From assembly GCA_041653195.1 (NCBI GenBank), contig JBAZFU010000002.1:87639-151638 (forward strand): a DNA stretch of 64,000 bases, in the 5' to 3' direction. The stretch is from an archaeon. GTDB taxonomy: Archaea > Iainarchaeota > Iainarchaeia > Iainarchaeales > JAAZKV01. Shown in pieces: positions 9,831 through 45,642 of this stretch (positions are counted from its first letter, which is position 1; every line of letters starts with the position of its first letter). Both the position numbers and the translations under genes were made by a program. The notes beneath the pieces are model-generated. The model had not been told where the DNA came from and searched no databases. It saw only the letters and a list, made by a program, of their open reading frames with translations.

Positions 9831-9964
9831 CAGGCCTGCTGGGAATCGAACCCAGGTCTGTTCCTAGCACCGACTCCTTCCGGCGAAACTCAAACTTTTT
9901 CGCCAACCTTTTTCAAAAAAAGGTCGTAGGAGGGAACCATACTAATCCACTATACTACAGGCCT
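9831..9964 (-). tRNA. tRNA-Arg(CCU) with 61-nt intron at position 37/38
   Basis: - Minus-strand cloverleaf: acceptor AGGCCUG/CAGGCCU, D arm GUAU-AGUGGAUUA-GUAU, anticodon stem GUUCC/GGAAC, T arm CUGGG-UUCGAUU-CCCAG, discriminator G.
- Loop: CUCCUA + A gives anticodon CCU.
- The intron occupies about 9866-9926.
- CCA is not encoded, and a T7 run follows the gene. Confidence 0.85.
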
Positions 9965-15076: not shown

Positions 15077-15235
15077 GCCCCTGTGGCTCAGCGGTAGAGC
15101 AACTGCTTCGTAACGGGCCCTTTCTTTTAGAAAAAGAAAGTGTTACGTTATCCCAAAGAAAATCAGCTTTCATTAATTCGGGATAAAAAAAAGCGGACGA
15201 GCAGTATGTCGTGGGTTCGATTCCCACCAGGGGCT
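15077..15235 (+). tRNA. tRNA-Thr(CGU) with 87-nt intron at position 37/38
   Basis: - Cloverleaf: acceptor GCCCCUG/CAGGGGC, D arm GCUC-AGCGGUA-GAGC, anticodon stem ACUGC/GCAGU, T arm GUGGG-UUCGAUU-CCCAC, discriminator U.
- Loop: UUCGUA + A gives anticodon CGU.
- The intron occupies about 15113-15199. Confidence 0.85.
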
Positions 15236-27937: not shown

Positions 27938-28402
27938 ATGAACTGCCTCGGCACTGCAAAGAAGATTGCAATCGTTTCCGGTTTTGGCGAATCCGACACC
28001 AGCGAATTAAACGCCTTCGACAATGCACTAATAAACGCAGGAATCCACGACTGCAACCTAATGCCAGTTTCCTCAATACTTGCCAAAAATACCAGAATAG
28101 TGAAAAAATTCGACATTGAAAAAGGCGCATTTGTTCCGTGCGTATTAAGCTCGACAGAGGGAAAGAAAAACCAAACCATCTGCACAGGAATAAGCATCGG
28201 AATCAATAACAAAAAATACGGGTTTGTAGTCGAAGGACAAACAAAAAGCGAAAAAGAATTAAACAAAGAATTAGATTTAAAACTTGAAGAAATGGCAACA
28301 AAAAGAAAACTAAAAATACTTCAAAGAAAAACAATAATAAAAGCTGGAAAAATTACAAAAAAATTCGGATGCTGCGTTACAGCAGTTGTTTATTTGTTTT
28401 AA
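27938..28402 (+). CDS. pdaD: Pyruvoyl-dependent arginine decarboxylase
   Basis: SELNAFDNALINAGIHDCNLMPVSSILA contains the self-cleavage SS site context of PdaD. 154 aa. Confidence 0.88.
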   Translation: MNCLGTAKKIAIVSGFGESDTSELNAFDNALINAGIHDCNLMPVSSILAKNTRIVKKFDIEKGAFVPCVLSSTEGKKNQTICTGISIGINNKKYGFVVEGQTKSEKELNKELDLKLEEMATKRKLKILQRKTIIKAGKITKKFGCCVTAVVYLF

Positions 28403-28412
28403 CGGTGAAAAA

Positions 28413-29639
28413 ATGGTATTTGAAATAGGAATCGGAACAAGCCAAAACTGGGACCCAGAAAAAGCTTCATTAGAAGCGACAACAGACGCTTTAAGCAAGC
28501 TAACGCATCCTCCGACATTCGTTCTTCTTTTTTCCACAATCCACTACGAAAAAAACAACGGCTTCCAAAAAATACTTGACACGACATATACAAAAATACC
28601 AAAAGAAACCCCCTTGGTTGGAGGGACTGTTGCAGGGTTCATGAACAATAACGGATGTTATACGCGAGGCATGACGATACTAACGTGCTACTCTGATGAA
28701 ATTGAACCGAACATTGACTTCGCAAGTAATATAAAAATAAACCCACAAACAGCCTCAAATAAATTAAATTTTCAAGACAATGAAAATTCGATAATAATTA
28801 CTAATATTGCAAACGGGACTGTTCCCAATCTCCCATTTCTTGGAAGAAAAAGAATTATTAGGGCACCACTGCCAGATAAAATCCTTCTAAAATCAGTTGA
28901 ATTGTTAAGTTTATTTGGATATGGTGTCGGCAGGGAACCCGAATTCGAAAAAAATCTTGCTCAGCGACTTCCGAACACCAGTCAACTGATTGTGGCAAAT
29001 TATGATGACAACAATTCGCTCAGCAATTACCAATTTCATAAAAAGGCTGTATTGAAGAATTCAGCCTCATGTCTTCAGTTAAAATTTAAAAATAATTTTA
29101 GTATGAACAGCGAATTTGGAGCAATAGAAACCGGAAAGAAGTTTACTATATCTGATGAAGGCGTATACGGATGCGCATTTTCTAAGGCAAACAAAAACAA
29201 TGCCCTTGATGAATTATGGGATTTGTTAGGATGGGACAAAAGCAGCCTAACCGAACAAATCTACCGAAGAACTTATTACTACCCCATAGGATACAAAATA
29301 GATGACAAAAAATATTCATTGCACATAATGGGATTAGTAATAAACAACAGTATTTGCACAACCCACAAATTTGATAAAAAAGAGAATGAATTTTTCGTAA
29401 CAAGCGGGAAAAAAATAATTGAAAGCGTCAAAAACATGACTGATCAAAACGAAAAAAACAATTTTATCTTTGGCAATTTTTGCACATCCCATTTAGAAAC
29501 ACTTGGGAAAAAAATATTCCAAATAAATGAATTAATTAAAGAAAATCACTTGATAGTATTTTCGGCAGGCGAGGGGTACAAATACAAAAAAGAAGAACCT
29601 TACTTTTTCAATTCTTCTTTTACTTTTTTCAAATTTTGA
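28413..29639 (+). CDS. FIST-domain protein
   Basis: MVFEIGIGTS...PTFVLLFSTIHYE...PLVGGTVAGFMNNNG...GMTILTCY follows the FIST_N pattern. GGTGA lies upstream of the ATG at 28413. The coding sequence is very AT-rich. Confidence 0.7.
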   Translation: MVFEIGIGTSQNWDPEKASLEATTDALSKLTHPPTFVLLFSTIHYEKNNGFQKILDTTYTKIPKETPLVGGTVAGFMNNNGCYTRGMTILTCYSDEIEPNIDFASNIKINPQTASNKLNFQDNENSIIITNIANGTVPNLPFLGRKRIIRAPLPDKILLKSVELLSLFGYGVGREPEFEKNLAQRLPNTSQLIVANYDDNNSLSNYQFHKKAVLKNSASCLQLKFKNNFSMNSEFGAIETGKKFTISDEGVYGCAFSKANKNNALDELWDLLGWDKSSLTEQIYRRTYYYPIGYKIDDKKYSLHIMGLVINNSICTTHKFDKKENEFFVTSGKKIIESVKNMTDQNEKNNFIFGNFCTSHLETLGKKIFQINELIKENHLIVFSAGEGYKYKKEEPYFFNSSFTFFKF

Positions 29640-30811
29640 CTCTTAACAAAATTTTTAACATGTTTACAATCCATTTTAATCAATCGGCGAACACCATCCA
29701 AATCCAATATCTGAGAAATTAACAAAAAAAACAAAAAATGCCTTTTTTCTTCTTCTTTCAACAAAAATATGTCTAATGAAATTTTTTGAATTTCTTTAGA
29801 ATAATTCCAAATGTCAACATATTTCTTGTCCATCAAATCAATAAAATCCAAATCAATGTCCGAGTTTGCCAAATAAAGTTTAGAAAGATTGCCTGCAGAA
29901 TAACCACTAATCAAACCTGGCAAAATACCCTCTAAAAACGGTTTCAAATTATGATTTGCTGCATCACCACAAAAAATAACATTTCCAAAACGCATTTTGT
30001 CAACCACATCACCCCACACAACATCTTTTGTCTTGTCTTTCACAATTGCATAATTTTTTACTTGACGCGCTACATACGGCAAAGAAATAAATTCATTAAA
30101 CATTGTCGATAATTTTTTTTTCTTAAACGTGCACCCTATGCCAACATTAGCAACAGATTTTGATTTTGGAAATATATATCCATAGCCGCCCTCTGCAAAG
30201 CCGCCAATAAATATTTGTTCAACTTTTGAGTCATTTAATTTTAGATTAGAAAGTTCAAAAGAATATGCATAACCTGTTTCTCCTTTTTTTGGATTATATA
30301 ATCCAAGTTTTTTTGAAACTACTGAAAAACTGCCATCCGCCGCAATTAATACTTTAGGGCTAATTACTAATTCATCCGAATTAAACTTATTTTTTACAAA
30401 TACTTTCTTGACAACTATTTCAGACTTGACCCCTGAAAAATCAATGTCAACCAATTCATAACCCAAATAGTGTTTCGCACCATTTGCAAGTGACTTTTTT
30501 GCCAATTGTTTTTCAAAAAACGACCTGTCAATAGTATACCCTGCCCAATAATCTCCACGCCGCTTTATTTCATAATCATGACAAAAAAAATCAACACCTT
30601 TGATTGACCACATATTCCCCAGATTGACGTTAAGCGGTAGCACATCAAGTAAATACCCCCCTATTCCTTCAGCACAACGAATGTCCTCTCCAATGACTAC
30701 TTGCTTTTCGATAATAATAGTGTTTAAATTATTATTAGCGCAAGAAGCTCCTGCAGCCAATCCCGCGGGCCCGCCTCCAACAACAAGAACATCACAAGTT
30801 AGCTCTTTCAT
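29600..30811 (-). CDS. Geranylgeranyl reductase-family FAD-dependent oxidoreductase (copy 1)
   Basis: CDVLVVGGGPAGLAAG dinucleotide-binding motif, IRCAEGIGG (Cys-containing motif in the position of the GGR catalytic Cys) and GDAANH. Confidence 0.8.
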   Translation of the reverse strand: MKELTCDVLVVGGGPAGLAAGASCANNNLNTIIIEKQVVIGEDIRCAEGIGGYLLDVLPLNVNLGNMWSIKGVDFFCHDYEIKRRGDYWAGYTIDRSFFEKQLAKKSLANGAKHYLGYELVDIDFSGVKSEIVVKKVFVKNKFNSDELVISPKVLIAADGSFSVVSKKLGLYNPKKGETGYAYSFELSNLKLNDSKVEQIFIGGFAEGGYGYIFPKSKSVANVGIGCTFKKKKLSTMFNEFISLPYVARQVKNYAIVKDKTKDVVWGDVVDKMRFGNVIFCGDAANHNLKPFLEGILPGLISGYSAGNLSKLYLANSDIDLDFIDLMDKKYVDIWNYSKEIQKISLDIFLLKEEEKRHFLFFLLISQILDLDGVRRLIKMDCKHVKNFVKSQNLKKVKEELKK

Positions 30812-30868
30812 ATTTTATAAGTAAAGACGTAGGATATAATAATAGTTTCGGGGAAAACAATTATTTAC

Positions 30869-32044
30869 ATGCAGTATATAATTGGAAACGGCTTGAGTGG
30901 TTTATCCGCAGCTTATTTTTCTAAAGAAGATAACATTGTTTTTGGATCTGACGACAGCAGAATATTGACTCTTAAAACTAAACTCTCAATTGATGTAGGA
31001 GCACAGTTTTTTTCCAAAAATGACCAAAATCTTTTTGACTTAACAAAAAACCTTCTGTTGGAAAATTCCCTAAAAGAAACTACGATTGATAAATTGTCGA
31101 TGCAGCATAAACAAGAATTATTTAAAATAAATGACAACTTTTCAGAATTAAATGAAGTCATGGCAAAAAAGCTGAATGAATTCAAAACTTTTTTGAGCAA
31201 AAGCGATGAACTCCTTGAAAAAATGCCCAAAGAATTATTTGAAACTAATTTCAACAAATGGTACAAAAAAAATTTTGATAAAGACACTATCTGGTTCATT
31301 GATTCATTACTCAAATCAATAACCTTCATCGAGTCAAAAGACGTTTGTGCATTTTATGGAATAATTGCATGCCAAAGCTTCTTTACAAAAACTTACACAT
31401 TTGAAAAAGGGCTCTCAGAAATAATAAATAAGTTAAAAGAAAAAACAAAAGTGGAAAGTGCCGAAGTAAGACAAATATCTTTTTCTTCGGGAAACGCCAC
31501 AATATTTTTTGATAAAAATGAAAAAATTTCAGAAAACGGCGACAAAATAATTTCTGCAATCCCAAGCAACAAGCTCGCCAAAATCCTTGAAGAAAAGGAA
31601 CTTGCAAACGTTTTGAAAAAAATGCCTTATGCAGGTTGCAGTGTTTTAGTGGCAAACAGCGACGCCCCCTTGACAAAAAAAACCAACGGCATAATTTTTT
31701 CAAAAAAACAAAAAATCTCCGCAATTTTAAAAAATGAAGAATACTATACGATTCTAGCGCCCTACAAAAAAGATCAAACCGCCCCAAATCAAAAAATACT
31801 GCTGAACGAATTAAAAAAAATTACGAATAACGATAACATAGAAATTACTTGTTTCAAAAATTGGGATTATGGCCTACCAACATGTTCTCCAAAAATGTTC
31901 AAGTATCAACAAAAAATAATTGAAATAACTAACCAATATGATAATTTCGCCATTTGTGGCGATTTTATGGGACTGCCCTCACTAGATGCCTGTGTTGAAA
32001 GTGCAAAAAAAGCCGTTTTAAAAATAGAAAAAAATAACCCCTAA
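30869..32044 (+). CDS. Amine-oxidase/phytoene-desaturase/protoporphyrinogen-oxidase-like flavoprotein, degenerate
   Basis: The N-terminal MQYIIGNGLSGLSAAYF and DVGAQFF blocks resemble the CrtI/HemY family. The second half of the dinucleotide-binding motif is not evident. Confidence 0.6.
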   Translation: MQYIIGNGLSGLSAAYFSKEDNIVFGSDDSRILTLKTKLSIDVGAQFFSKNDQNLFDLTKNLLLENSLKETTIDKLSMQHKQELFKINDNFSELNEVMAKKLNEFKTFLSKSDELLEKMPKELFETNFNKWYKKNFDKDTIWFIDSLLKSITFIESKDVCAFYGIIACQSFFTKTYTFEKGLSEIINKLKEKTKVESAEVRQISFSSGNATIFFDKNEKISENGDKIISAIPSNKLAKILEEKELANVLKKMPYAGCSVLVANSDAPLTKKTNGIIFSKKQKISAILKNEEYYTILAPYKKDQTAPNQKILLNELKKITNNDNIEITCFKNWDYGLPTCSPKMFKYQQKIIEITNQYDNFAICGDFMGLPSLDACVESAKKAVLKIEKNNP

Positions 32045-33267
32045 TAAAAAGGCAATAATGCTTTCGCAGCAGCCTTTGCACCAATTCTGATTGTTTTGTG
32101 CGGCTTTCTGAGCAGCGCAAACACAATATGCCTCAATTTGAAATTTTCCTCGTCAACAAGTTCATCCAAATGCTGCTTTGAATGCAAATAATTTGCCGAT
32201 TCAACCAAAAAATCAAAATCAGGATTTGTAAGTTTATCATAAACGCCCCTGAAAAAATGACCCTGCGACTCGTCACCCAAAGATTTCTTCAAAGAAACTT
32301 CATAGTGCTTCAAAGCCTTTTCATTCAAACCATGCGATTTGATGCTTTCGGCAAGAAGATAACCTGATTTCATCGCAGGATTAACGCCATAAGCAAAAAC
32401 AGGACTCATTACCCTCGCAGCATCGCCGCACAAAGCAACATTGCCCACCACTCTTTTTGAAATCATGGAAGCTGTGCATTCGCCCGAATTAAAATTTATC
32501 ACCTTTGCGCCGAGCATTATTCCAAAGAGCTCAGGATTTTTCGCAATAAAATCGTCGAAATATTCCTTCAAAGGGCGCTTTGCCCTTTTCTTGTTTACAA
32601 CAACCATTGCAATCCCAATTTCGTTTGAAACCTTCCCGACAAAAAAATATCCGCCAGGGGCATAAAAAGAATCAAAAAAAATGCTTGTCGAATTGTTTTC
32701 CATTTTCAGACCTTCCATTAGCGCACCAAAACCGGCAATAGTAACTGGATTCTTCTGCGTAATTCCGAGCAAATGCAAGAATTTTGAATTGGGGCCGTCG
32801 GCCGCAACAACTATTTTTGGTTCAACAACGACTTTTTTTCCGTTTCTATTAATTATGACTGAAGAAATTTTTCCTTTAGCGCCAAAATCGTGTTTTTCTA
32901 TTTCAGAATTAAACCAAATATCCACCCCGTTGTCTTTCATCGCAAGAAACAGGGAATAATCAAGCGAATCTTTTGACGGACCGCGCAAGAAAAACAGGTC
33001 GTGAACGGAAGAAACGAAAGTGAATTTGTTGTTCGGGGAAAACCAGACGGATTTGTTTGTTTTTGCCAAATAATCTGATTTCAATTCCTTAATTATGTGC
33101 TCAATTCCCTTATTCTCAGTTATATCAATTTTTCTTGAATGCGCTTCGCCCCACTTCTTTGCCTTATCTATGCAGATTACTTCAAATCCTTCTTTCGCAA
33201 GCTTTGAGGAACAGGTTGCGCCGCTTGGACCGGCGCCAATAACCAAAACATCGCATTTGAGAACCAT
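32041..33267 (-). CDS. Geranylgeranyl reductase-family FAD-dependent oxidoreductase (copy 2, lacks the Cys motif)
   Basis: CDVLVIGAGPSGATCSSKLAKEGFEVICIDK, VVAADGPNSKF and CGDAARVMSP. I see no CGG/CxE-type motif after the first beta-alpha-beta. The ATG at 33267 is preferred. Confidence 0.8.
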   Translation of the reverse strand: MVLKCDVLVIGAGPSGATCSSKLAKEGFEVICIDKAKKWGEAHSRKIDITENKGIEHIIKELKSDYLAKTNKSVWFSPNNKFTFVSSVHDLFFLRGPSKDSLDYSLFLAMKDNGVDIWFNSEIEKHDFGAKGKISSVIINRNGKKVVVEPKIVVAADGPNSKFLHLLGITQKNPVTIAGFGALMEGLKMENNSTSIFFDSFYAPGGYFFVGKVSNEIGIAMVVVNKKRAKRPLKEYFDDFIAKNPELFGIMLGAKVINFNSGECTASMISKRVVGNVALCGDAARVMSPVFAYGVNPAMKSGYLLAESIKSHGLNEKALKHYEVSLKKSLGDESQGHFFRGVYDKLTNPDFDFLVESANYLHSKQHLDELVDEENFKLRHIVFALLRKPHKTIRIGAKAAAKALLPFY

Positions 33268-33316
33268 CACAAAAACCAAATGCACTTATAAAAATAAAAA
33301 AATCAAAACTAAAAAT

Positions 33317-33706
33317 TCAAATTTGCGAGGGAACTTCCTCTTTTTTTTCAATTATTTGTTTTATTTTTCTTTTTGAGTTCTCAACCTCAACATCAATCAA
33401 ACCCATATTGGCGAGCGACGGAATTATCACAAGCAAAGAAAATGTCTGGCTCACGGGTGCAAAAATTATTGTGTACTCGCCAAGCTCAAAGTAAAGCCTG
33501 TCGATTTTATAAATAAAAAATTTATCTATTATTGGAAATATTTCGTTTGTAGTGTTCTTTACAAGATTCCACAAATTAACATCCTTTACTTTTATTCCTT
33601 CAGGGACTATTCCGCCAAGCCCTTTTTTTGCAAGCATACAGGCTAAGACGTCATCCATTCGCAGAAGATCAGAGAGAACCGCAAGCACTTCTTCTTTTTT
33701 TGGCAT
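33317..33706 (-). CDS. Roadblock/LC7 (MglB-like) domain protein
   Basis: 129 aa. LSDLLRMDDVLACMLAKKGLGGIVPEG...YTIIFAPVSQTFSLLVIIPSLANMGLI follows the Roadblock/LC7 pattern. Confidence 0.65.
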   Translation of the reverse strand: MPKKEEVLAVLSDLLRMDDVLACMLAKKGLGGIVPEGIKVKDVNLWNLVKNTTNEIFPIIDKFFIYKIDRLYFELGEYTIIFAPVSQTFSLLVIIPSLANMGLIDVEVENSKRKIKQIIEKKEEVPSQI

Positions 33707-33708
33707 AA

Positions 33709-34365
33709 TCAGTAATTAATAGCCTTATCATCATAATAAAACTTTCTATGCGCAACGAGATGTTTGCTATAACGCATTACGGAAGCATATCCGATGTCCC
33801 ATGCCAAAAAAGCAAAAAAGTATATTAATGGGAAAAAATTTAGAAGTGCAAACGAAAAAACAACAATTTTCATAACGAATCTGTACTCAAAAAACAAGTG
33901 AATATACTTCCCAAAATGCTTAACTGTATGATAAATATTGTTTTTATCAACAAAGTCATTTCCAACTTCGTCAAGAATTCCTGCAATAGAGATTGAAATT
34001 AGCGCAATTGGGTAAATGAAAATAAAATCTAACGGAGAAGAGCTTAGGAAAAAGAATGCCACATAAACGCAGAGAACTCCCATAATAAAAGCAATATTGT
34101 CAATCTTGCCCTTAACAACAACCCCAATTATTACTGCTGTCAAAATAAGCGCCGAAATTGGGCTAAGTGCCATTATGTACCCCCAATAAATCGCGGTTAC
34201 CGGCGCAAGAATAAGAGCAACAGTCCTTGGAAAAGTTTTTTCATCAAACGCATCATCGATGTATTTAATACTTGCTCCTAACAAAAAATACGAAACAACC
34301 AAAAAAACAGAATATATGAAAGCATCCTGCATTAAAATTTCTTTAAAAATCAAAGGCAATACCAA
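33709..34365 (-). CDS. Polytopic membrane protein with two Asp-rich motifs (UbiA-prenyltransferase-like?)
   Basis: Six or so hydrophobic helices. IKYIDDAFDE follows helix 1 and GILDEVGNDFVD comes mid-protein. A 2-nt gap separates it from the downstream Roadblock gene. Confidence 0.65.
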   Translation of the reverse strand: MVLPLIFKEILMQDAFIYSVFLVVSYFLLGASIKYIDDAFDEKTFPRTVALILAPVTAIYWGYIMALSPISALILTAVIIGVVVKGKIDNIAFIMGVLCVYVAFFFLSSSPLDFIFIYPIALISISIAGILDEVGNDFVDKNNIYHTVKHFGKYIHLFFEYRFVMKIVVFSFALLNFFPLIYFFAFLAWDIGYASVMRYSKHLVAHRKFYYDDKAINY

Positions 34366-34416
34366 TCAAAACACCTTGGGAGTTAGTAAATAATTTAATT
34401 AATTATTTGCACCGAG

Positions 34417-35181
34417 CTATATCTCAGACTCTTTTATTACTATCCCGTTAGACTCCATCGCATAAGGTATAGTCGCCTTATTGTGGTCAGTATAACGCAT
34501 CTTTCTCAATATCAAACTTCTAAAATCGACCGAACCAACTCCAACATAATTAAGCATTATAACGCCATCCGCAATGAATTCGCTCACGCCGTCGGCGCTT
34601 AGCTGTCCGTCGCTTTCCGGCAACTCCGTCGTCATCAAAGTCGTTAACCTGTATTTTCTCAATTCTTTGAACAATTTGTAAAGAATACTTTTCGCGACGA
34701 CCTGCTCGGTGCGGGGAATCGGGTTAACGCTCTCAGCGATTTGCACCATTGAAAAGCCCGAATCGTCCGTAATGCCCGAAATAAGAAGAGAATCCGTGAG
34801 CGTGGTCAGTGAATCCACAACAATTCTCTTTGGATTAAATTTTTGAATCGCATCATCAATCTTCGTCATAAAATTTTCGCCAACAGTAATATCAAAATAA
34901 ATTATTTTCACAAGACTCTTTTGCTCCAAATCGTTAATGTTCCAATTAAAGCCCGCAGCCTGCTTAATTAATTCCTCGCGGCCCTGCTCAGTAGAAATAT
35001 ACAAAGCCTTTTCACCGAACAAAAGAGCGCCGTTAACCGCGTACTGCAAAGCAAGCGTCGATTTTCCTGTTCCTGCGCCGCCAGAAATAAGCACAATGTT
35101 TCCCTCGGGAATCCCGCCTTTCAGCGCAGAATCAAGACCCTGAATCCCGAATTTCGTGCGAACGATTTCCTCAAGAGGCAT
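34417..35181 (-). CDS. KaiC/RadA-like RecA-superfamily ATPase (single domain)
   Basis: GIQGLDSALKGGIPEGNIVLISGGAGTGKSTLALQY (Walker A) and RIVVDSLT (Walker B). 254 aa. Confidence 0.85.
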   Translation of the reverse strand: MPLEEIVRTKFGIQGLDSALKGGIPEGNIVLISGGAGTGKSTLALQYAVNGALLFGEKALYISTEQGREELIKQAAGFNWNINDLEQKSLVKIIYFDITVGENFMTKIDDAIQKFNPKRIVVDSLTTLTDSLLISGITDDSGFSMVQIAESVNPIPRTEQVVAKSILYKLFKELRKYRLTTLMTTELPESDGQLSADGVSEFIADGVIMLNYVGVGSVDFRSLILRKMRYTDHNKATIPYAMESNGIVIKESEI

Positions 35182-35310
35182 AATATCGCAACTATAAAGC
35201 GAAGAAGTAGTATTTAAAAGTTACATTTTAAGATTCTGCCCAGAGTTATTTCAACGGTGCCAAAATTTTTGACAAGCGCCCCGCAAAAATTGCCTTAAAA
35301 AAAACAATCA

Positions 35311-35955
35311 CTATTTTCCGTAAGCTCTTTTCCGTTGCGAAATCCTTCCGGAATTTTTTAGAACCGTTATCCTTTTCCTAAAAGCAAAATAATCAAGCGG
35401 CTTCTCTTCCTCGGGCAGAAGTCCGTTAATTTCCTCAATAATTTTGGCGTCGCGCATGCCCGGATTCGCTTTCCTAATCCTAACAATCAGCGAATCAATA
35501 ATTGCAAAAGCCGCTTCCCGTTTTCCTCTCAACCTCATTGCAACATCATATTCTTTTGGGCGCGGAATATCAATCCCTTCTTTAGCAAGTTCATCAAGAG
35601 CCTTCGAAACAAGACCCTTGCTCAAACCCCTCTCCAATCCCGCAGCCTTTGCTTCAACAATAACCTCTCTTGAAGTAACATTTCTCCCTGAAGCCCCAAT
35701 TTTTCTTGCAATCGGCTTCACAACATTATACTTTACACTATCAAAAACAAGTCGTTGAATTTGCCGCGAACTAAGCCTCCCGCCCTTTAGACGCAAAGCA
35801 GTGCTCAAATCAACACCCCCTCGTTTCGCAGCCTTCGGCAAAGAAACACCATAATTCTGAGCTGAACGAACAACAGCTTCACGCTTTTCAGGAGAAATTC
35901 CCGCAGCAAACCTTCCGGTGCGCGCATCCTTGCGAAAATGATTTCTCGCAGCCAT
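35311..35955 (-). CDS. Arg-rich basic protein, unknown function
   Basis: 214-aa standalone ORF, Arg/Ala/Gly-rich. No motif recognised. Confidence 0.55.
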   Translation of the reverse strand: MAARNHFRKDARTGRFAAGISPEKREAVVRSAQNYGVSLPKAAKRGGVDLSTALRLKGGRLSSRQIQRLVFDSVKYNVVKPIARKIGASGRNVTSREVIVEAKAAGLERGLSKGLVSKALDELAKEGIDIPRPKEYDVAMRLRGKREAAFAIIDSLIVRIRKANPGMRDAKIIEEINGLLPEEEKPLDYFAFRKRITVLKNSGRISQRKRAYGK

Positions 35956-37848: not shown

Positions 37849-37907
37849 ATTCCGTCAAGAAGCGCGGCAATCAATTAACTATTAAATTTTATTGTGTGGG
37901 AAAAAAC

Positions 37908-38795
37908 ATGTGTGGAATAATAGGCGCGGCTTACAAGGAAAAGAAAAACATCGGCAAATCGCTCGTCGAAATGGCGAAAACGCTACAGCACAGAGGAACC
38001 GACGGCGCGGGCTTCGCAATATACGGCGGTCTCGAATTAAACAAAAACGAGTACATGATAACCGTTGAAGTACTGAAAAACGTTGACGCGATTTACGGCG
38101 CGATAAATGCGGAAATAAAAAAACAGGAAGAGCTCTCGGACGAAGTAAAACGCTACACCGTATTCGCGAGTTCTTACGAGCACGTAAAAAAAATTGTTAA
38201 TCACTTAAACAGAATTGAAGGAGTAAACGTTCTCGGCGGCGGAAAATTCGAAATGATAAAAGACCTTGGAACAGTTGAAGAAATCGACAAAAAATTTAAT
38301 ATTAGCGAAAAGAAAGGAACGCACGGATTGGCACATGTGAGGTTCAGTACGGAAAGCTGCGTCGACAGGTATCATGCGCACCCCTTTCAAAGTTACATTT
38401 ATCCGGAAATAACTGTTGTGCACAACGGACAAATAACAAACTGCACCGCAGTAAGAAGAAGGCTGGCCGCGAAAGGGCACATATTCAGCACCGATAACGA
38501 CACCGAAGTAATAGTGCATTACATCGCGGACAAACTAAACGACGAATACTCCCTGGAAGAAGCGTTGGCGCAATCGGTAAAAGACATGGACGGGCCGTTC
38601 ACATACTTAATAGCCACGGCAAATGAAATTGGGATAGTGAAAGACAAACTCGCGCTTCGCCCTGGAATATTATGTGAAACAAAAGAAATGTTCGCCGCCG
38701 CATCCGAAAAAGTTGCGCTCGAATCGGTGGCAAAAAACGGGCCGTTCGAAGTGCTCACAAAAGGCGAGCACCGCGTATTCAAAATAAAAAAATAG
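37908..38795 (+). CDS. Glutamate synthase, class II glutamine amidotransferase subunit
   Basis: MCGIIGA N-terminal nucleophile, HVRFSTES and VVHNGQITN. ATG-Cys at 37908 is preferred over the upstream GTG. Confidence 0.88.
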   Translation: MCGIIGAAYKEKKNIGKSLVEMAKTLQHRGTDGAGFAIYGGLELNKNEYMITVEVLKNVDAIYGAINAEIKKQEELSDEVKRYTVFASSYEHVKKIVNHLNRIEGVNVLGGGKFEMIKDLGTVEEIDKKFNISEKKGTHGLAHVRFSTESCVDRYHAHPFQSYIYPEITVVHNGQITNCTAVRRRLAAKGHIFSTDNDTEVIVHYIADKLNDEYSLEEALAQSVKDMDGPFTYLIATANEIGIVKDKLALRPGILCETKEMFAAASEKVALESVAKNGPFEVLTKGEHRVFKIKK

Positions 38796-38817
38796 TAAAA
38801 ATTTACAGGAAAAAAAC

Positions 38818-39492
38818 ATGAAAAAAAAAGAAAACGCAAAAGTAATTGACTTAAAAGGATTAAAGCCGAGAGAAGCGAACAGGCTTGTGAAAGAAAACGC
38901 GAAAAAATACGCGAAACTCAAAATAATAAACCCTAATTCAATGAACTACCTAGCCGCAGGCTTGATAGGCGAAGCGGAAATAACTGTGGAAGGAGACTTG
39001 GGTTATTACGCGGGCTCAATGATTGACGGAATAAAAATGCGCGTCAACGGAAGATGCGGATGGTACCCTGCAGATAACATGGCCTCCGGAGAAATCATAA
39101 TTACGGGCGAGGGAGGAGACGGTGCAGGACAAGGCATGTACGGCGGAACCTTATATGTTAAAGAAAACACGAACTCGCGAACGGGACAAATAATGAAAAA
39201 CGGAACAATAATAGTCGGCGGAGACGCGGGCTTCATGACAGGGCTATACATGATGGGCGGAAAAATAATTGTTTTAGGAGATATGGAAGAGGGCGCCGGC
39301 GAATCAATGATAGGCGGAAAAATATTTTTCGGAGGAAAAGCAAAAAGCTTCGGAAAAAACGTTCAAGTAGGAAACCCGACCGCAGAAGAAATCGAAGAAA
39401 TAAAAAAATTATTTTCAAAATACAAAATAAACTCTGAACCGAAAAAATTCAAGAAATTAACGCCGAAAAAAGACAGGCCGGTGTACGGATAA
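38818..39492 (+). CDS. Glutamate synthase GXGXG-domain subunit
   Basis: Repeated beta-helix Gly pattern: VEGDLGYYAGSMIDGIKMRVNG...IIITGEGGDGAGQGMYGGTLYV...IIVGGDAGFMTG. Confidence 0.88.
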   Translation: MKKKENAKVIDLKGLKPREANRLVKENAKKYAKLKIINPNSMNYLAAGLIGEAEITVEGDLGYYAGSMIDGIKMRVNGRCGWYPADNMASGEIIITGEGGDGAGQGMYGGTLYVKENTNSRTGQIMKNGTIIVGGDAGFMTGLYMMGGKIIVLGDMEEGAGESMIGGKIFFGGKAKSFGKNVQVGNPTAEEIEEIKKLFSKYKINSEPKKFKKLTPKKDRPVYG

Positions 39493-39538
39493 AAAAATGT
39501 TTGATGACAAAATTTGAACGATAAAAAAAGATGATTTT

Positions 39539-40756
39539 ATGAAAATGTGGGAACAGGAAACAATAAACGAAATCAGGGCAAAATCCGCTGCAGGAAAATA
39601 CGTTGTAAGAGGAATGGGTTCGAAAAGAGATTTGCCCCACTTCGACAGTCTTGTGATACTTCCGGCACAAATTTCACGCCCTCCAATAGACAGTTACAGG
39701 GAGCCGTGCGAAACAAAAACGGTTATCGGAAAAAGATTTGCGAAAAAACCGTTGGAAATGGAATCACCGATAATTTTGGGCGCGATGAGCTTCGGCGCAA
39801 TAGGAAAAGACGCAAAAATCGCTTTCGCAAAAGGATGCAAAAGACTTGGAATTGCTGTGAACAGCGGAGAAGGCGGCGTGCTTCCTGAAGAAAGAAAATT
39901 CGCGGACAAATTAATTGTCCAATACGCGTCAGGCAGATTCGGAATCTCCTCAAAAATTTTGAACGAAGCGGACGCAATTGAAATAAAGATAGGACAGGGA
40001 GCGAAACCCGGAATGGGCGGACACCTAATGGGAGAAAAAGTTTCAAAAGAAGTCGCGCAAATACGCGGCATACCGGAAAAATCTGACGCGCTAAGCCCGT
40101 CAAGGCACATGGATATTGTGGGACCGGAAGATTTGTCCTTCAAAATAAACCAGCTGAGAGAAATCACGGATTGGCGAATACCAATAATAGTAAAATTCGG
40201 ACCTGGAAGAGTCGAGAGTGATGTTAAAATAGCGGCGAAAGCCGGAGCGGACGCGGTGGCGATAGACGGAATGCAGGGAGGAACGGGCGCGGCACCGGAA
40301 ATCGGAACGGAACACGCAGGAATACCAACACTTGCAGCAGTGGTTGAAGCGGACAGAGCTCTAACAGAAATGGGAATGCGAGATGATGTTGATTTAATAA
40401 TTTCGGGCGGAATAAGAAACGGCGCGGACATAGCGAAAGCGATGGCACTCGGAGCAAGCGCGGTACAAATGGCAACAGCGCCGATGATAAGCATAGGTTG
40501 CACAATGTGCAGGCAATGCCACTTAGGAAAATGCCCTGTCGGAATTGCGGCACACGGCGCGGAAGCAAAAGAAAAACTAGCAAAAGACGCGGAGCAAAGA
40601 TTCGTGAATTACGTGAACGCGACGGTAAAAGAATTGAAGATGCTTACACAACTCGCGGGACTGACAAATGTTCACAACCTTGATGTTGATGATTTGCGCT
40701 CGCTGAGCTACGAAACAAGCCTCATAACAGGAATAAAATTAGTCGGACAAAAATAA
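39539..40756 (+). CDS. Glutamate synthase FMN-binding subunit
   Basis: FDSLVILPAQISRPPID, IKIGQGAKPGMGGHL, DGMQGGTGAAP and the CTMCRQCHLGKCPVGIA cluster motif. Confidence 0.9.
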   Translation: MKMWEQETINEIRAKSAAGKYVVRGMGSKRDLPHFDSLVILPAQISRPPIDSYREPCETKTVIGKRFAKKPLEMESPIILGAMSFGAIGKDAKIAFAKGCKRLGIAVNSGEGGVLPEERKFADKLIVQYASGRFGISSKILNEADAIEIKIGQGAKPGMGGHLMGEKVSKEVAQIRGIPEKSDALSPSRHMDIVGPEDLSFKINQLREITDWRIPIIVKFGPGRVESDVKIAAKAGADAVAIDGMQGGTGAAPEIGTEHAGIPTLAAVVEADRALTEMGMRDDVDLIISGGIRNGADIAKAMALGASAVQMATAPMISIGCTMCRQCHLGKCPVGIAAHGAEAKEKLAKDAEQRFVNYVNATVKELKMLTQLAGLTNVHNLDVDDLRSLSYETSLITGIKLVGQK

Positions 40757-45078: not shown

Positions 45079-45642
45079 TCATTCAAAAACTAATTGGTCG
45101 CGAACCTCTCTCGTCGAAAGGTCGAATTCGCTCTGCGGCTTAATTATGAACTTGCACGCCTGTGCTTTTAGCGCGGCACACTCAGATTCCACACAATCAA
45201 CATCAACACCGAAAGCATTTGAAAAAATTCCCGCAAAAATTCCGCGGAGCATAACGTCAACGGGCCACGAAACTTTTCCCTTCAAAGCTTGCGCAACAGG
45301 AGAATTTTCAACCAAGAGAATTGCGCGCTTCCCATTGAAATCCAAATCAATTGTTTGAACTTTTCCCCAGCCCGAAGCGGTGAAAAAAGTCATCATTAGT
45401 TCAAGAGCTTTCTCCCTGTTCAAACCGAAATCAACATCGAATTGTTTCGTGAGGTCGGATTTAACGTTCTTCTTCATGGACGCATAAATTTTTCTGTGAA
45501 GCTCGGGGTCCTGAACCTCCATAGCAGAAGTAATCACTTCAACGGGCGCAATAAGAAACGGAATATTTGCCAAGTAAAAGTTGTTATGAGTGTACTTCAA
45601 ATTGTTGGTGAAAATATACTTGTCAAAGAAAGAGTTAAGCAT
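45079..45642 (-). CDS. V4R-domain protein
   Basis: FTASGWGKV...VENSPVA...VDCVESECAALKAQACKFIIKP matches the V4R (4-vinyl reductase) small-molecule-binding pattern. Confidence 0.75.
   Translation of the reverse strand: MLNSFFDKYIFTNNLKYTHNNFYLANIPFLIAPVEVITSAMEVQDPELHRKIYASMKKNVKSDLTKQFDVDFGLNREKALELMMTFFTASGWGKVQTIDLDFNGKRAILLVENSPVAQALKGKVSWPVDVMLRGIFAGIFSNAFGVDVDCVESECAALKAQACKFIIKPQSEFDLSTREVRDQLVFE

Follow-up and report, generated by a model that had tools for sequence, protein, structure and literature searches.

KaiC-like ATPases have been proposed as archaeal signalling hubs that act via a second or partner component (PMC4858521, PMC5847659), and in the hub neighbourhoods surveyed by Makarova, Galperin & Koonin (2017), as summarised in these two papers, a one-domain KaiC-family protein or an inactivated iKaiC is found beside putative input and output parts. 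Here we describe a gene module of similar layout, found in a stretch of 64,000 nucleotides (nt) from an Iainarchaeota-type DPANN archaeon (assembly GCA_041653195.1, contig JBAZFU010000002.1, positions 87,639 to 151,638; hereafter the window). It combines a KaiC-like ATPase with a small membrane protein (MEM), a Roadblock-like protein (RBL), a FIST-domain protein and flavoproteins of the geranylgeranyl reductase (GGR) family, and, as in the described hubs, both active and inactivated KaiC forms occur in it across genomes. However, we found no description of a KaiC neighbourhood with a family of seven transmembrane (TM) helices, GGR, FIST and a Roadblock protein of the AF0774 type in the summaries of the 2017 survey; a passing mention in the survey itself is possible. 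The original prediction, which had drawn attention to this locus, did not recognise the arrangement either, and the literature searched held no described matching system, no paper linking the FIST, Roadblock, KaiC and GGR families, and no relevant work on AF0774.

Other known systems resemble the module in concept or in single parts. In the DesK-DesR control of a desaturase in Bacillus subtilis, a membrane component and a cytoplasmic switch are likewise encoded with an enzyme of lipid (un)saturation. This likeness is conceptual: the protein families are entirely different, the DPANN and Thermoplasmatota versions of the module have no histidine kinase or response regulator, and thermosensing is without evidence in the module. 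Archaeal digeranylgeranylglycerophospholipid reductases (3OZ2; Sulfolobus GGR 3ATQ/4OPC) are the best matches of the two GGR proteins, and the Roadblock/LC7 dimers that regulate small GTPases in the MglA/MglB and Rag-Ragulator systems have the same fold as RBL. In the window the module comprises seven genes at ~28386-35181 (lengths in amino acids, aa):

34417-35181, minus strand: KaiC-like ATPase, single domain, 254 aa
33709-34365, minus strand: MEM, membrane protein with seven predicted TM helices, 218 aa, TTG start
33317-33706, minus strand: RBL, 129 aa, starting 2 nt after the MEM stop
32041-33285 (open reading frame, ORF; likelier 32041-33267), minus strand: GGR2, GGR-family flavoprotein, 408 aa from the ATG at 33267
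30869-32044, plus strand: AOX, divergent flavoprotein of the flavin adenine dinucleotide (FAD)-dependent amine-oxidase/protoporphyrinogen-oxidase (PPO)/CrtI superfamily, 391 aa, accessory member
29600-30811, minus strand: GGR1, canonical GGR-type flavoprotein with xCAEG and YGYIFPK motifs, 403 aa
28386-29639, plus strand: FIST-domain protein, 417 aa, convergent with GGR1, conserved module member

The original prediction had proposed the first four of these as a co-oriented run on the minus strand. All four ORFs were found as it described them, with gaps of 51, 2 and 31-49 nt, and their linkage is real, but the unit is larger than four genes: FIST, GGR1 and the PPO/CrtI-like flavoprotein AOX co-occur with the quartet across phyla. 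From sequence, predicted structure and gene context, on which all functional statements here rest, we infer, with a probability of roughly 45%, that the module serves a modification of membrane isoprenoids by MEM and the GGR proteins under the control of KaiC, Roadblock and FIST. MEM would be an enzyme in this scheme and an isoprenoid lipid its substrate, with physical contacts between the proteins and a regulatory logic of the kind set out below.

Scanning one genome per GTDB species with a MEM alignment yielded 117 relatives. The best 80 loci together with the window were used for counting (81 loci), with neighbours identified by tblastn with the window proteins and by clustering all ORFs de novo. 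Represented in this set are Iainarchaeota, Thermoplasmatota, Hydrothermarchaeota, Aenigmatarchaeota, Micrarchaeota, ANME-1 (Methanophagales; ANME, anaerobic methanotrophic archaea), Methanosarcinales, Methanomicrobia and Bathyarchaeia. The neighbourhood is widespread in archaea and not peculiar to the window genome; linkage across archaeal genomes had been suggested as a check on the quartet, and its neighbourhood does recur over several phyla. In 55/81 loci (31/37 of those with enough flank) MEM has a GGR gene within 6 kb, which bears out the proposed tie to isoprenoid reductases. Within the same distance, Roadblock is found in 42/81, FIST in 39/81 and a PPO/CrtI-like flavoprotein in 10/81 loci. 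Directly adjoining MEM is either a KaiC gene (upstream, 26/81 loci) or a gene for a membrane protein of ~1000 aa that carries a KaiC domain at its C-terminus (16/81), giving a KaiC or TM-fused KaiC domain next to MEM in 42/81 loci.

Gene order varies with lineage. Iainarchaeota loci have the order of the window, KaiC-MEM-RBL-GGR2(-GGR1) with a convergent FIST gene; KaiC-MEM-RBL was seen in ~25 Iainarchaeota-type loci, with GGR directly after it in most. Thermoplasmatota loci read MEM(-MEM)-GGR(-GGR), convergent with an RBL-FIST operon, and have KaiC beside them in three loci only. In ANME, Methanosarcinales and Hydrothermarchaeota, MEM stands beside the TM-fused KaiC, often with a FilR1-like regulator, and the GGR genes follow one or a few genes on, while Aenigmatarchaeota and Micrarchaeota show intermediate orders. 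Tandem duplication of MEM occurs in 13 loci, and GGR1 orthologues come after MEM or GGR2 in most loci. Mechanical calling of ORF starts in the related loci makes the gap values approximate; the medians are 21.5 nt from KaiC to MEM, 3 nt from MEM to RBL, 19 nt from RBL to GGR (range -4 to 400), 28 nt from MEM to GGR and 32 nt from FIST to RBL. Such gaps are operon-like. Chance adjacency of MEM and GGR is excluded at the frequency seen, because archaeal genomes hold only few GGR paralogues per megabase. Taken together, this supports the view that the four genes belong to one functional module, although it does not reveal the chemistry. The presence of the module in reduced DPANN genomes suggests that its function is important enough to retain.

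Two aspects of the gene context speak for an isoprenoid substrate and for a link between MEM and KaiC. A polyprenyl synthetase gene (PF00348, E=3e-73) lies a few genes from the module in several loci, some of them from Iainarchaeota, and a UbiA-family gene adjoins MEM in locus L067. Further to that, MEM is associated with KaiC in two architectures, one with a soluble, active protein (DPANN-type) and the other with an inactive, TM-fused domain.

The distribution also bears on a rival explanation, ATP-driven lipid uptake or flipping, which builds on a speculative reading of the original prediction (a regulated system of lipid remodelling or uptake). KaiC would then be a motor and MEM a conduit through which a lipid-auxotrophic DPANN cell imports and remodels the lipids of its host. 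This would suit the affiliation of the window organism, and a GGR homologue common to Micrarchaeota and Thermoplasmatales is reported from a host-dependent micrarchaeon (PMC8975820). It would also agree with the intact ATPase motifs of KaiC, encoded directly before MEM. However, conservation of the module is just as strong in Thermoplasmatota, Hydrothermarchaeota, ANME-1, Methanosarcinales and Bathyarchaeia. These lineages (and ANME as a whole) are generally regarded as free-living. The KaiC domain is inactive in some lineages and absent from the vicinity of most Thermoplasmatota loci, a polyprenyl synthetase is encoded near the module in some Iainarchaeota loci, and MEM has no transporter-like fold match. 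Lipid scavenging is weakened by the free-living carriers, the inactive or missing KaiC of many versions and the polyprenyl synthetase genes; the idea of uptake by an organism that cannot make its own lipids thus finds no support, and we consider this explanation very unlikely.

MEM itself is the most distinctive component. As had been proposed, it is a polytopic protein of 218 aa with Asp-rich motifs. Its seven TM helices are predicted to run from an outer N-terminus to an inner C-terminus, because loops 1, 3 and 5 and the C-terminus are rich in K/R (positive-inside) and the other loops are nearly without K/R. Thirteen residues are invariant in 94/94 sequences (G30, K34, D37, D41, K87, D89, D132, E133, G135, N136, D137, R162 and Y193), ten of them charged or polar, and N90, K166 and D190 are nearly invariant in the same set. 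They form the motifs K34-x2-D37-D-x2-D41-E, K87-x-D89-N, D132-E-x-G-N-D137-x2-D, R162-x3-K166 and D190-x2-Y193. Most of the conserved residues lie in cytoplasmic loops 1, 3 and 5 or the adjoining helix ends, with D190 and Y193 within the last helix. The two Asp-rich motifs, DDxxDE after TM1 and DExGNDxxD after TM5, recall the metal/diphosphate-binding motifs of prenyltransferases and terpene synthases. By analogy, this set of carboxylates with Asn, Lys and Arg is the pattern expected of an active site that binds Mg2+ and phosphate, and the invariant site keeps MEM in place as the enzyme candidate that the original prediction had seen in it.

The family has at the same time no recognisable relatives. 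MEM gave no Pfam or NCBIfam match even at E<=10, 36 relatives likewise matched neither collection, and its profile matched no PDB sequence. From a 37-sequence alignment, AlphaFold2 (AF2) gave a model of high predicted quality (predicted local distance difference test, pLDDT, 90.9; predicted template-modelling score, pTM, 0.86), yet Foldseek against the PDB returned no meaningful fold neighbour (best E ~0.8, TM-score ~0.2). Confident assignment to an unrelated family had been named as a possible outcome that would speak against the proposal; searches of Pfam, PDB sequences and PDB folds gave no such assignment. The family counts ~300 close homologues and 580 cluster representatives in a library of 1.84 billion proteins, and the best 150 of these 580 are all short, with no evident or informative domain fusion. 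Prepilin-peptidase, CDP-alcohol-transferase, CarS/CdsA and MraY-type identities were dropped, as the respective Pfam models did not match. A scan of viral contigs with MEM gave two spurious 15-residue matches only.

The same motifs invite the explanation that MEM is an extremely diverged, minimal seven-TM UbiA prenyltransferase, whose prenylated lipid product would then be reduced by the GGR proteins. MEM shares with UbiA and class I terpenoid synthases two cytoplasm-facing Asp-rich motifs, a small polytopic build and an isoprenoid gene context, an analogy and nothing beyond it. Set against the generally known motif placement and architecture of UbiA, the motifs after TM1 and TM5 fit a UbiA protein minus its first and last helices; some MEM members read NDxxDxxxD at motif 2, and the neighbour in L067 is a bona fide UbiA gene. 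Nevertheless, UbiA has 9 TM helices as opposed to 7, PF01040 matches 0/37 MEM members, hhalign of the MEM profile gave a probability of 0.2-0.3% against both the L067 UbiA sequence and a 4-sequence UbiA profile, and no UbiA-family structure is among the top Foldseek matches in the PDB. With Pfam, hhalign and Foldseek all without similarity of sequence, profile or fold, we rejected homology between MEM and UbiA, and descent from this family is accordingly an unlikely account of MEM.

In the reading we prefer, MEM would be a Mg2+-dependent enzyme, or a subunit that presents the substrate, acting at the cytoplasmic face on the (di)phosphate head of a membrane isoprenoid, and the peripheral flavoproteins would then work on the polyprenyl chains. 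The best PDB match of both GGR proteins is the Thermoplasma GGR (Ta0516m, 3OZ2), with E=2.6e-22 for GGR1 and E=1.3e-17 for GGR2. Like the archaeal enzyme, GGR1 keeps the Cys and FP motifs: its DIRCAEG aligns to PVRCGEG of 3OZ2, which holds the catalytic Cys, and its YGYIFPK to the F-P motif. GGR2 differs from the archaeal enzyme, and, as had been noted, lacks the Cys motif of the other copy, with no Cys in the aligned stretch GEAHSRKIDIT; it has RKIDITE in place of the Cys motif and YFFVGK in place of the Y-x-W-x-F-P motif, with no F-P. This is not decay, because the same split orders 79 aligned homologues from the related loci into two orthologous groups, one with xCAEG and Y-x-Y-I-F-P-K and the other with K-(I/Y)-D-I-T-E. 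The latter group holds 27 sequences from Iainarchaeota, Micrarchaeota, Thermoplasmatota and ANME-type loci, and judged from these alignments the Cys-less GGR2 is a conserved, separate subfamily. GGR1 would thus act as the canonical saturase and GGR2 as a Cys-less DITE variant with altered chemistry. Both proteins score below the NCBIfam family and equivalog cutoffs for GGR (158.8 bits for the family model TIGR02032), GGR1 with 139.1 bits (E=2.3e-40) and GGR2 with 102.6 bits (E=3e-29). For PF22578 (cutoff 27), GGR1 is above it with 39.5 (E=5e-10) and GGR2 below it with 25.6.

The KaiC-like protein is a single-domain KaiC/RadA-like ATPase, as it had been described (PF06745, E=1.2e-54, 185.5 bits vs a cutoff of 26.6), and stays under every NCBIfam equivalog cutoff. 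A bona fide circadian KaiC has two tandem KaiC domains and ~500 aa; the window protein, with 254 aa and one domain, does not have this identity (139.9 vs 408 for PRK09302, 105 vs 546 for TIGR02655). Its Walker A motif GGAGTGKST, the Glu of STEQ and the Walker B motif RIVVDS are intact and conserved across 31 orthologues (DPANN), so that it is predicted to be catalytically active. In the second architecture, a polytopic protein of ~1000 aa from ANME, Methanosarcinales and Hydrothermarchaeota, neither Walker A nor Walker B is left in the C-terminal KaiC domain:

L056, L058, L059, L061, L066, L070 and L075-L082, for example L070:3427-6417, minus strand: TM-fused KaiC (PF06745, E=1.4e-7)

The large N-terminal membrane region of this protein has no Pfam match, and hmmsearch found no MEM-like domain inside it. 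As the TM-fused domain lacks both Walker motifs, what has been conserved in the KaiC-like partner would seem, from sequence comparison, to be a scaffolding or regulatory function and not energy supply or ATP-driven work, and we propose that the ATPase would dock onto MEM in this capacity. A PADLOC search for an anti-phage defence function returned a weak P-loop match only (KaiC-mad8, E=1.3e-6), with no match for the other seven proteins, and this reading was set aside.

The Roadblock/LC7 identity of RBL holds at the level of structure, with the AF2 model and Foldseek in agreement, while sequence gives no support. RBL has no Pfam match at E<=10, PF03259 (Robl_LC7) included, no NCBIfam match, and its family profile matches no PDB sequence. 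The AF2 model (29-sequence alignment, pLDDT 90.3) has an alpha-beta-beta-alpha-beta-beta-beta-alpha topology, and Foldseek aligns it with probability 1.0 to MglB (6hjm) and the Asgard Roadblock structures 9jue and 7f8m (TM-score 0.7-0.78), and also to 3kye and LAMTOR subunits. Homologues of RBL carry the recent Pfam family PF27410 'AF0774' in precomputed annotations, and the family comprises at least 1810 clusters at 90% identity. RBL therefore differs from MglB and Ragulator by its separate Pfam family, the missing PF03259 match and an identity of 11-17%, although an adaptor or regulator role at a membrane-associated complex is likely for all of them. Unlike the GTPase-partnered systems, RBL has FIST, MEM and KaiC as neighbours, and no small GTPase was recognised among the annotated recurrent neighbour clusters of the 81 loci or the window neighbours, a few small clusters being unannotated.

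The partner of RBL may be FIST rather than KaiC, because in Thermoplasmatota the RBL and FIST genes form an operon of their own with KaiC usually not nearby. The window copy of FIST is below detection by Pfam, and NCBIfam gives a weak NosP match only (E=0.006). Its identity is confirmed via its orthologues: tblastn relates it to them with E down to 9e-94, and nine of them match PF08495 (E 2e-12 to 1.8e-23, all over the 23.2 cutoff), two of the nine also passing the cutoff of PF10442 (FIST_C). It may be that FIST, as a ligand sensor, and Roadblock, as an adaptor, form a pair that feeds a signal into the module and renders its control ligand-dependent.

The abundance of such regulatory parts raises the question of whether the whole module is a signalling device. 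MEM would then be a membrane sensor or anchor, responding to membrane state or a cation, KaiC, Roadblock and FIST would form a relay, and the GGR proteins would be an output that tunes lipid saturation. KaiC-like ATPases as proposed hubs (PMC5847659, PMC4858521), the regulatory nature of FIST and Roadblock domains, a catalytically dead KaiC in the TM-fused form and a MEM protein without enzyme homologue are all compatible with this, as are the lineage-specific transcription factors that flank the module (winged helix-turn-helix in Iainarchaeota, double Lrp/AsnC in Thermoplasmatota, FilR1-like in ANME and Methanosarcinales). But a set of thirteen invariant residues (ten charged or polar) that is kept in several phyla is a more usual feature of active sites than of sensors; the tandem duplication of MEM in 13 loci also argues against a sensor, and the usual position of GGR right after MEM (median gap 28 nt) suggests an enzyme pair. 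By analogy with DesK-DesR and its desaturase in Bacillus this explanation may have some merit, though we judge it rather unlikely.

A further explanation comes from the accessory genes. The module could modify an amine head group or metabolite, for instance a polyamine-linked or amino-lipid, with the GGR-like proteins as generic flavin oxidoreductases. Accessory genes within the module include members of the amine-oxidase family (10 loci), GNAT proteins (8) and saccharopine/carboxynorspermidine-dehydrogenase-like proteins (5), and in the window a pyruvoyl arginine decarboxylase overlaps the start of FIST. For FIST domains, binding of small ligands such as amino acids has been proposed, which would agree with such chemistry. 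However, these genes are found in a minority of loci, GGR1 keeps the specific catalytic motifs of GGR, and arginine decarboxylase is not a recurrent neighbour cluster across the loci; we regard amine chemistry as highly improbable. AOX, the window representative of the amine-oxidase family, belongs to PF01593 at the superfamily level (E=2.5e-11, 44 bits, cutoff 19.8), falls short of the PPO equivalogs of NCBIfam (45 vs a cutoff of 97.85, and 31.5 vs 517) and has no PDB sequence match. In each of its 10/81 loci it lies within the module.

Several observations weigh against isoprenoid modification as the function of the module. Both GGR copies are below the NCBIfam GGR cutoff, and proteins of the GGR family have many non-lipid substrates. 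No homology of MEM to an enzyme was detected (Pfam, PDB sequences, PDB folds, hhalign vs UbiA 0.3%), and its invariant charges might serve instead to dock a protein or bind an ion. KaiC is missing from the examined flanks of most Thermoplasmatota loci, the accessory amine-oxidase, GNAT and saccharopine-dehydrogenase-like genes could point to amine rather than isoprenoid chemistry, and in the window GGR2 may have its own promoter.

A bolder version of the preferred reading would make MEM the founder of a new class of intramembrane isoprenoid-lipid enzymes, with a fold absent from the PDB, that together with the Cys-less DITE-type GGR carries out an as yet unassigned step of archaeal membrane-lipid modification under post-translational control by KaiC, Roadblock and FIST. 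We put this forward tentatively, as an outcome that is conceivable but on balance doubtful. If true, this would give archaea their first described circuit of lipid homeostasis, and RBL would be the first of the Roadblock proteins shown to function independently of a small GTPase. The chance that MEM is something categorically new is a real one. KaiC-like, Roadblock, FIST and GGR proteins are known types; the novelty lies in the family of MEM, the GGR subfamily of DITE type, the way in which the components are combined and a Roadblock protein without apparent GTPase partner. How archaeal isoprenoid membranes are regulated and adjusted is largely unknown, and several lipid-modifying steps have no assigned enzyme. 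The module offers a testable candidate, in which a broadly conserved membrane family with an enzyme-like invariant site stands beside GGR-type genes, a Cys-less GGR subfamily and a dedicated set of sensor and switch proteins. It also gives a context for two ideas, that of KaiC-like ATPases as archaeal signalling hubs and that of prokaryotic Roadblock proteins acting on non-GTPase partners.

With regard to transcription in the window, two elements were read from the sequence:

35211..35218, minus strand: TATA-box-like TTTAAATA, ~30 nt upstream of the KaiC ATG, probable promoter of the module
33268..33316, minus strand: T-rich 49-nt spacer between RBL and GGR2, possibly an internal promoter or terminator, with the TATA-like TTTTTATAA ~23 nt ahead of the ATG of GGR2

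The TTG start of MEM is preceded by GGTG, also as read from the sequence. The ATG at 33267 is the likelier start of GGR2 and is the one used in the JGI gene call on the identical contig. Because of the T-rich spacer and the TATA-like element between RBL and GGR2, it cannot be taken for granted that the four genes share one transcript in the window genome. A sigma-70 scan gave 21 sites vs 20.8 expected, a bacterial model that is uninformative for an archaeon.

Directly upstream of KaiC, across the start of FIST and further out in the window, the following features were seen:

35311-35955, minus strand: basic protein of 214 aa directly upstream of KaiC, no family match in Pfam or NCBIfam, not conserved among the related loci
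27938-28402, plus strand: pyruvoyl-dependent arginine decarboxylase, overlapping the start of FIST by 17 nt
45079-45642, minus strand: V4R-domain protein (PF02830, E=2.5e-9)
37896-40756, plus strand: three consecutive genes downstream of the threonyl-tRNA synthetase gene, resembling a split archaeal-type glutamate synthase

In related loci (L021, L023, L030, L031 and L069), the place between GGR and FIST is taken by enzymes of amine type, namely amine oxidase, GNAT acetyltransferase and saccharopine/carboxynorspermidine-dehydrogenase-like proteins. The V4R protein is a recurrent neighbour in Iainarchaeota loci, a few genes upstream of the module, and adjoins the polyprenyl synthetase (PF00348, E=3e-73) in three of them (L015, L017 and L020). 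In Thermoplasmatota, a B12-binding radical S-adenosylmethionine (SAM) protein is encoded ~250 nt upstream of MEM in ~20 loci, beside the double Lrp/AsnC regulator:

L027:4507-6420, plus strand, and L084 7086-8978: radical-SAM neighbour, TIGR03975 at 375.6 bits, over the cutoff

The TIGR03975 match, which denotes a B12-dependent C-methyltransferase of the type acting on ribosomally synthesised and post-translationally modified peptides (RiPPs), and the absence of a strong PDB relative ruled out a tetraether synthase; a role of this neighbour in lipid C-methylation is conceivable from its sequence.

The GC content of 28001-32000, which spans the FIST/GGR1/AOX half of the module, is 0.33 vs ~0.40 in the rest of the window, and may reflect horizontal acquisition. 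The putative split glutamate synthase consists of a glutamine amidotransferase (GATase) domain, a small middle ORF and a Glu_synthase domain (E=2.7e-121). Finally, ARAGORN called zero tRNAs in the window despite two matches to Rfam, at 15077-15235 (plus strand, 159 nt, 55.8 bits) and 9831-9964 (minus strand, 134 nt, 47.7 bits), which are probably intron-containing archaeal tRNAs.

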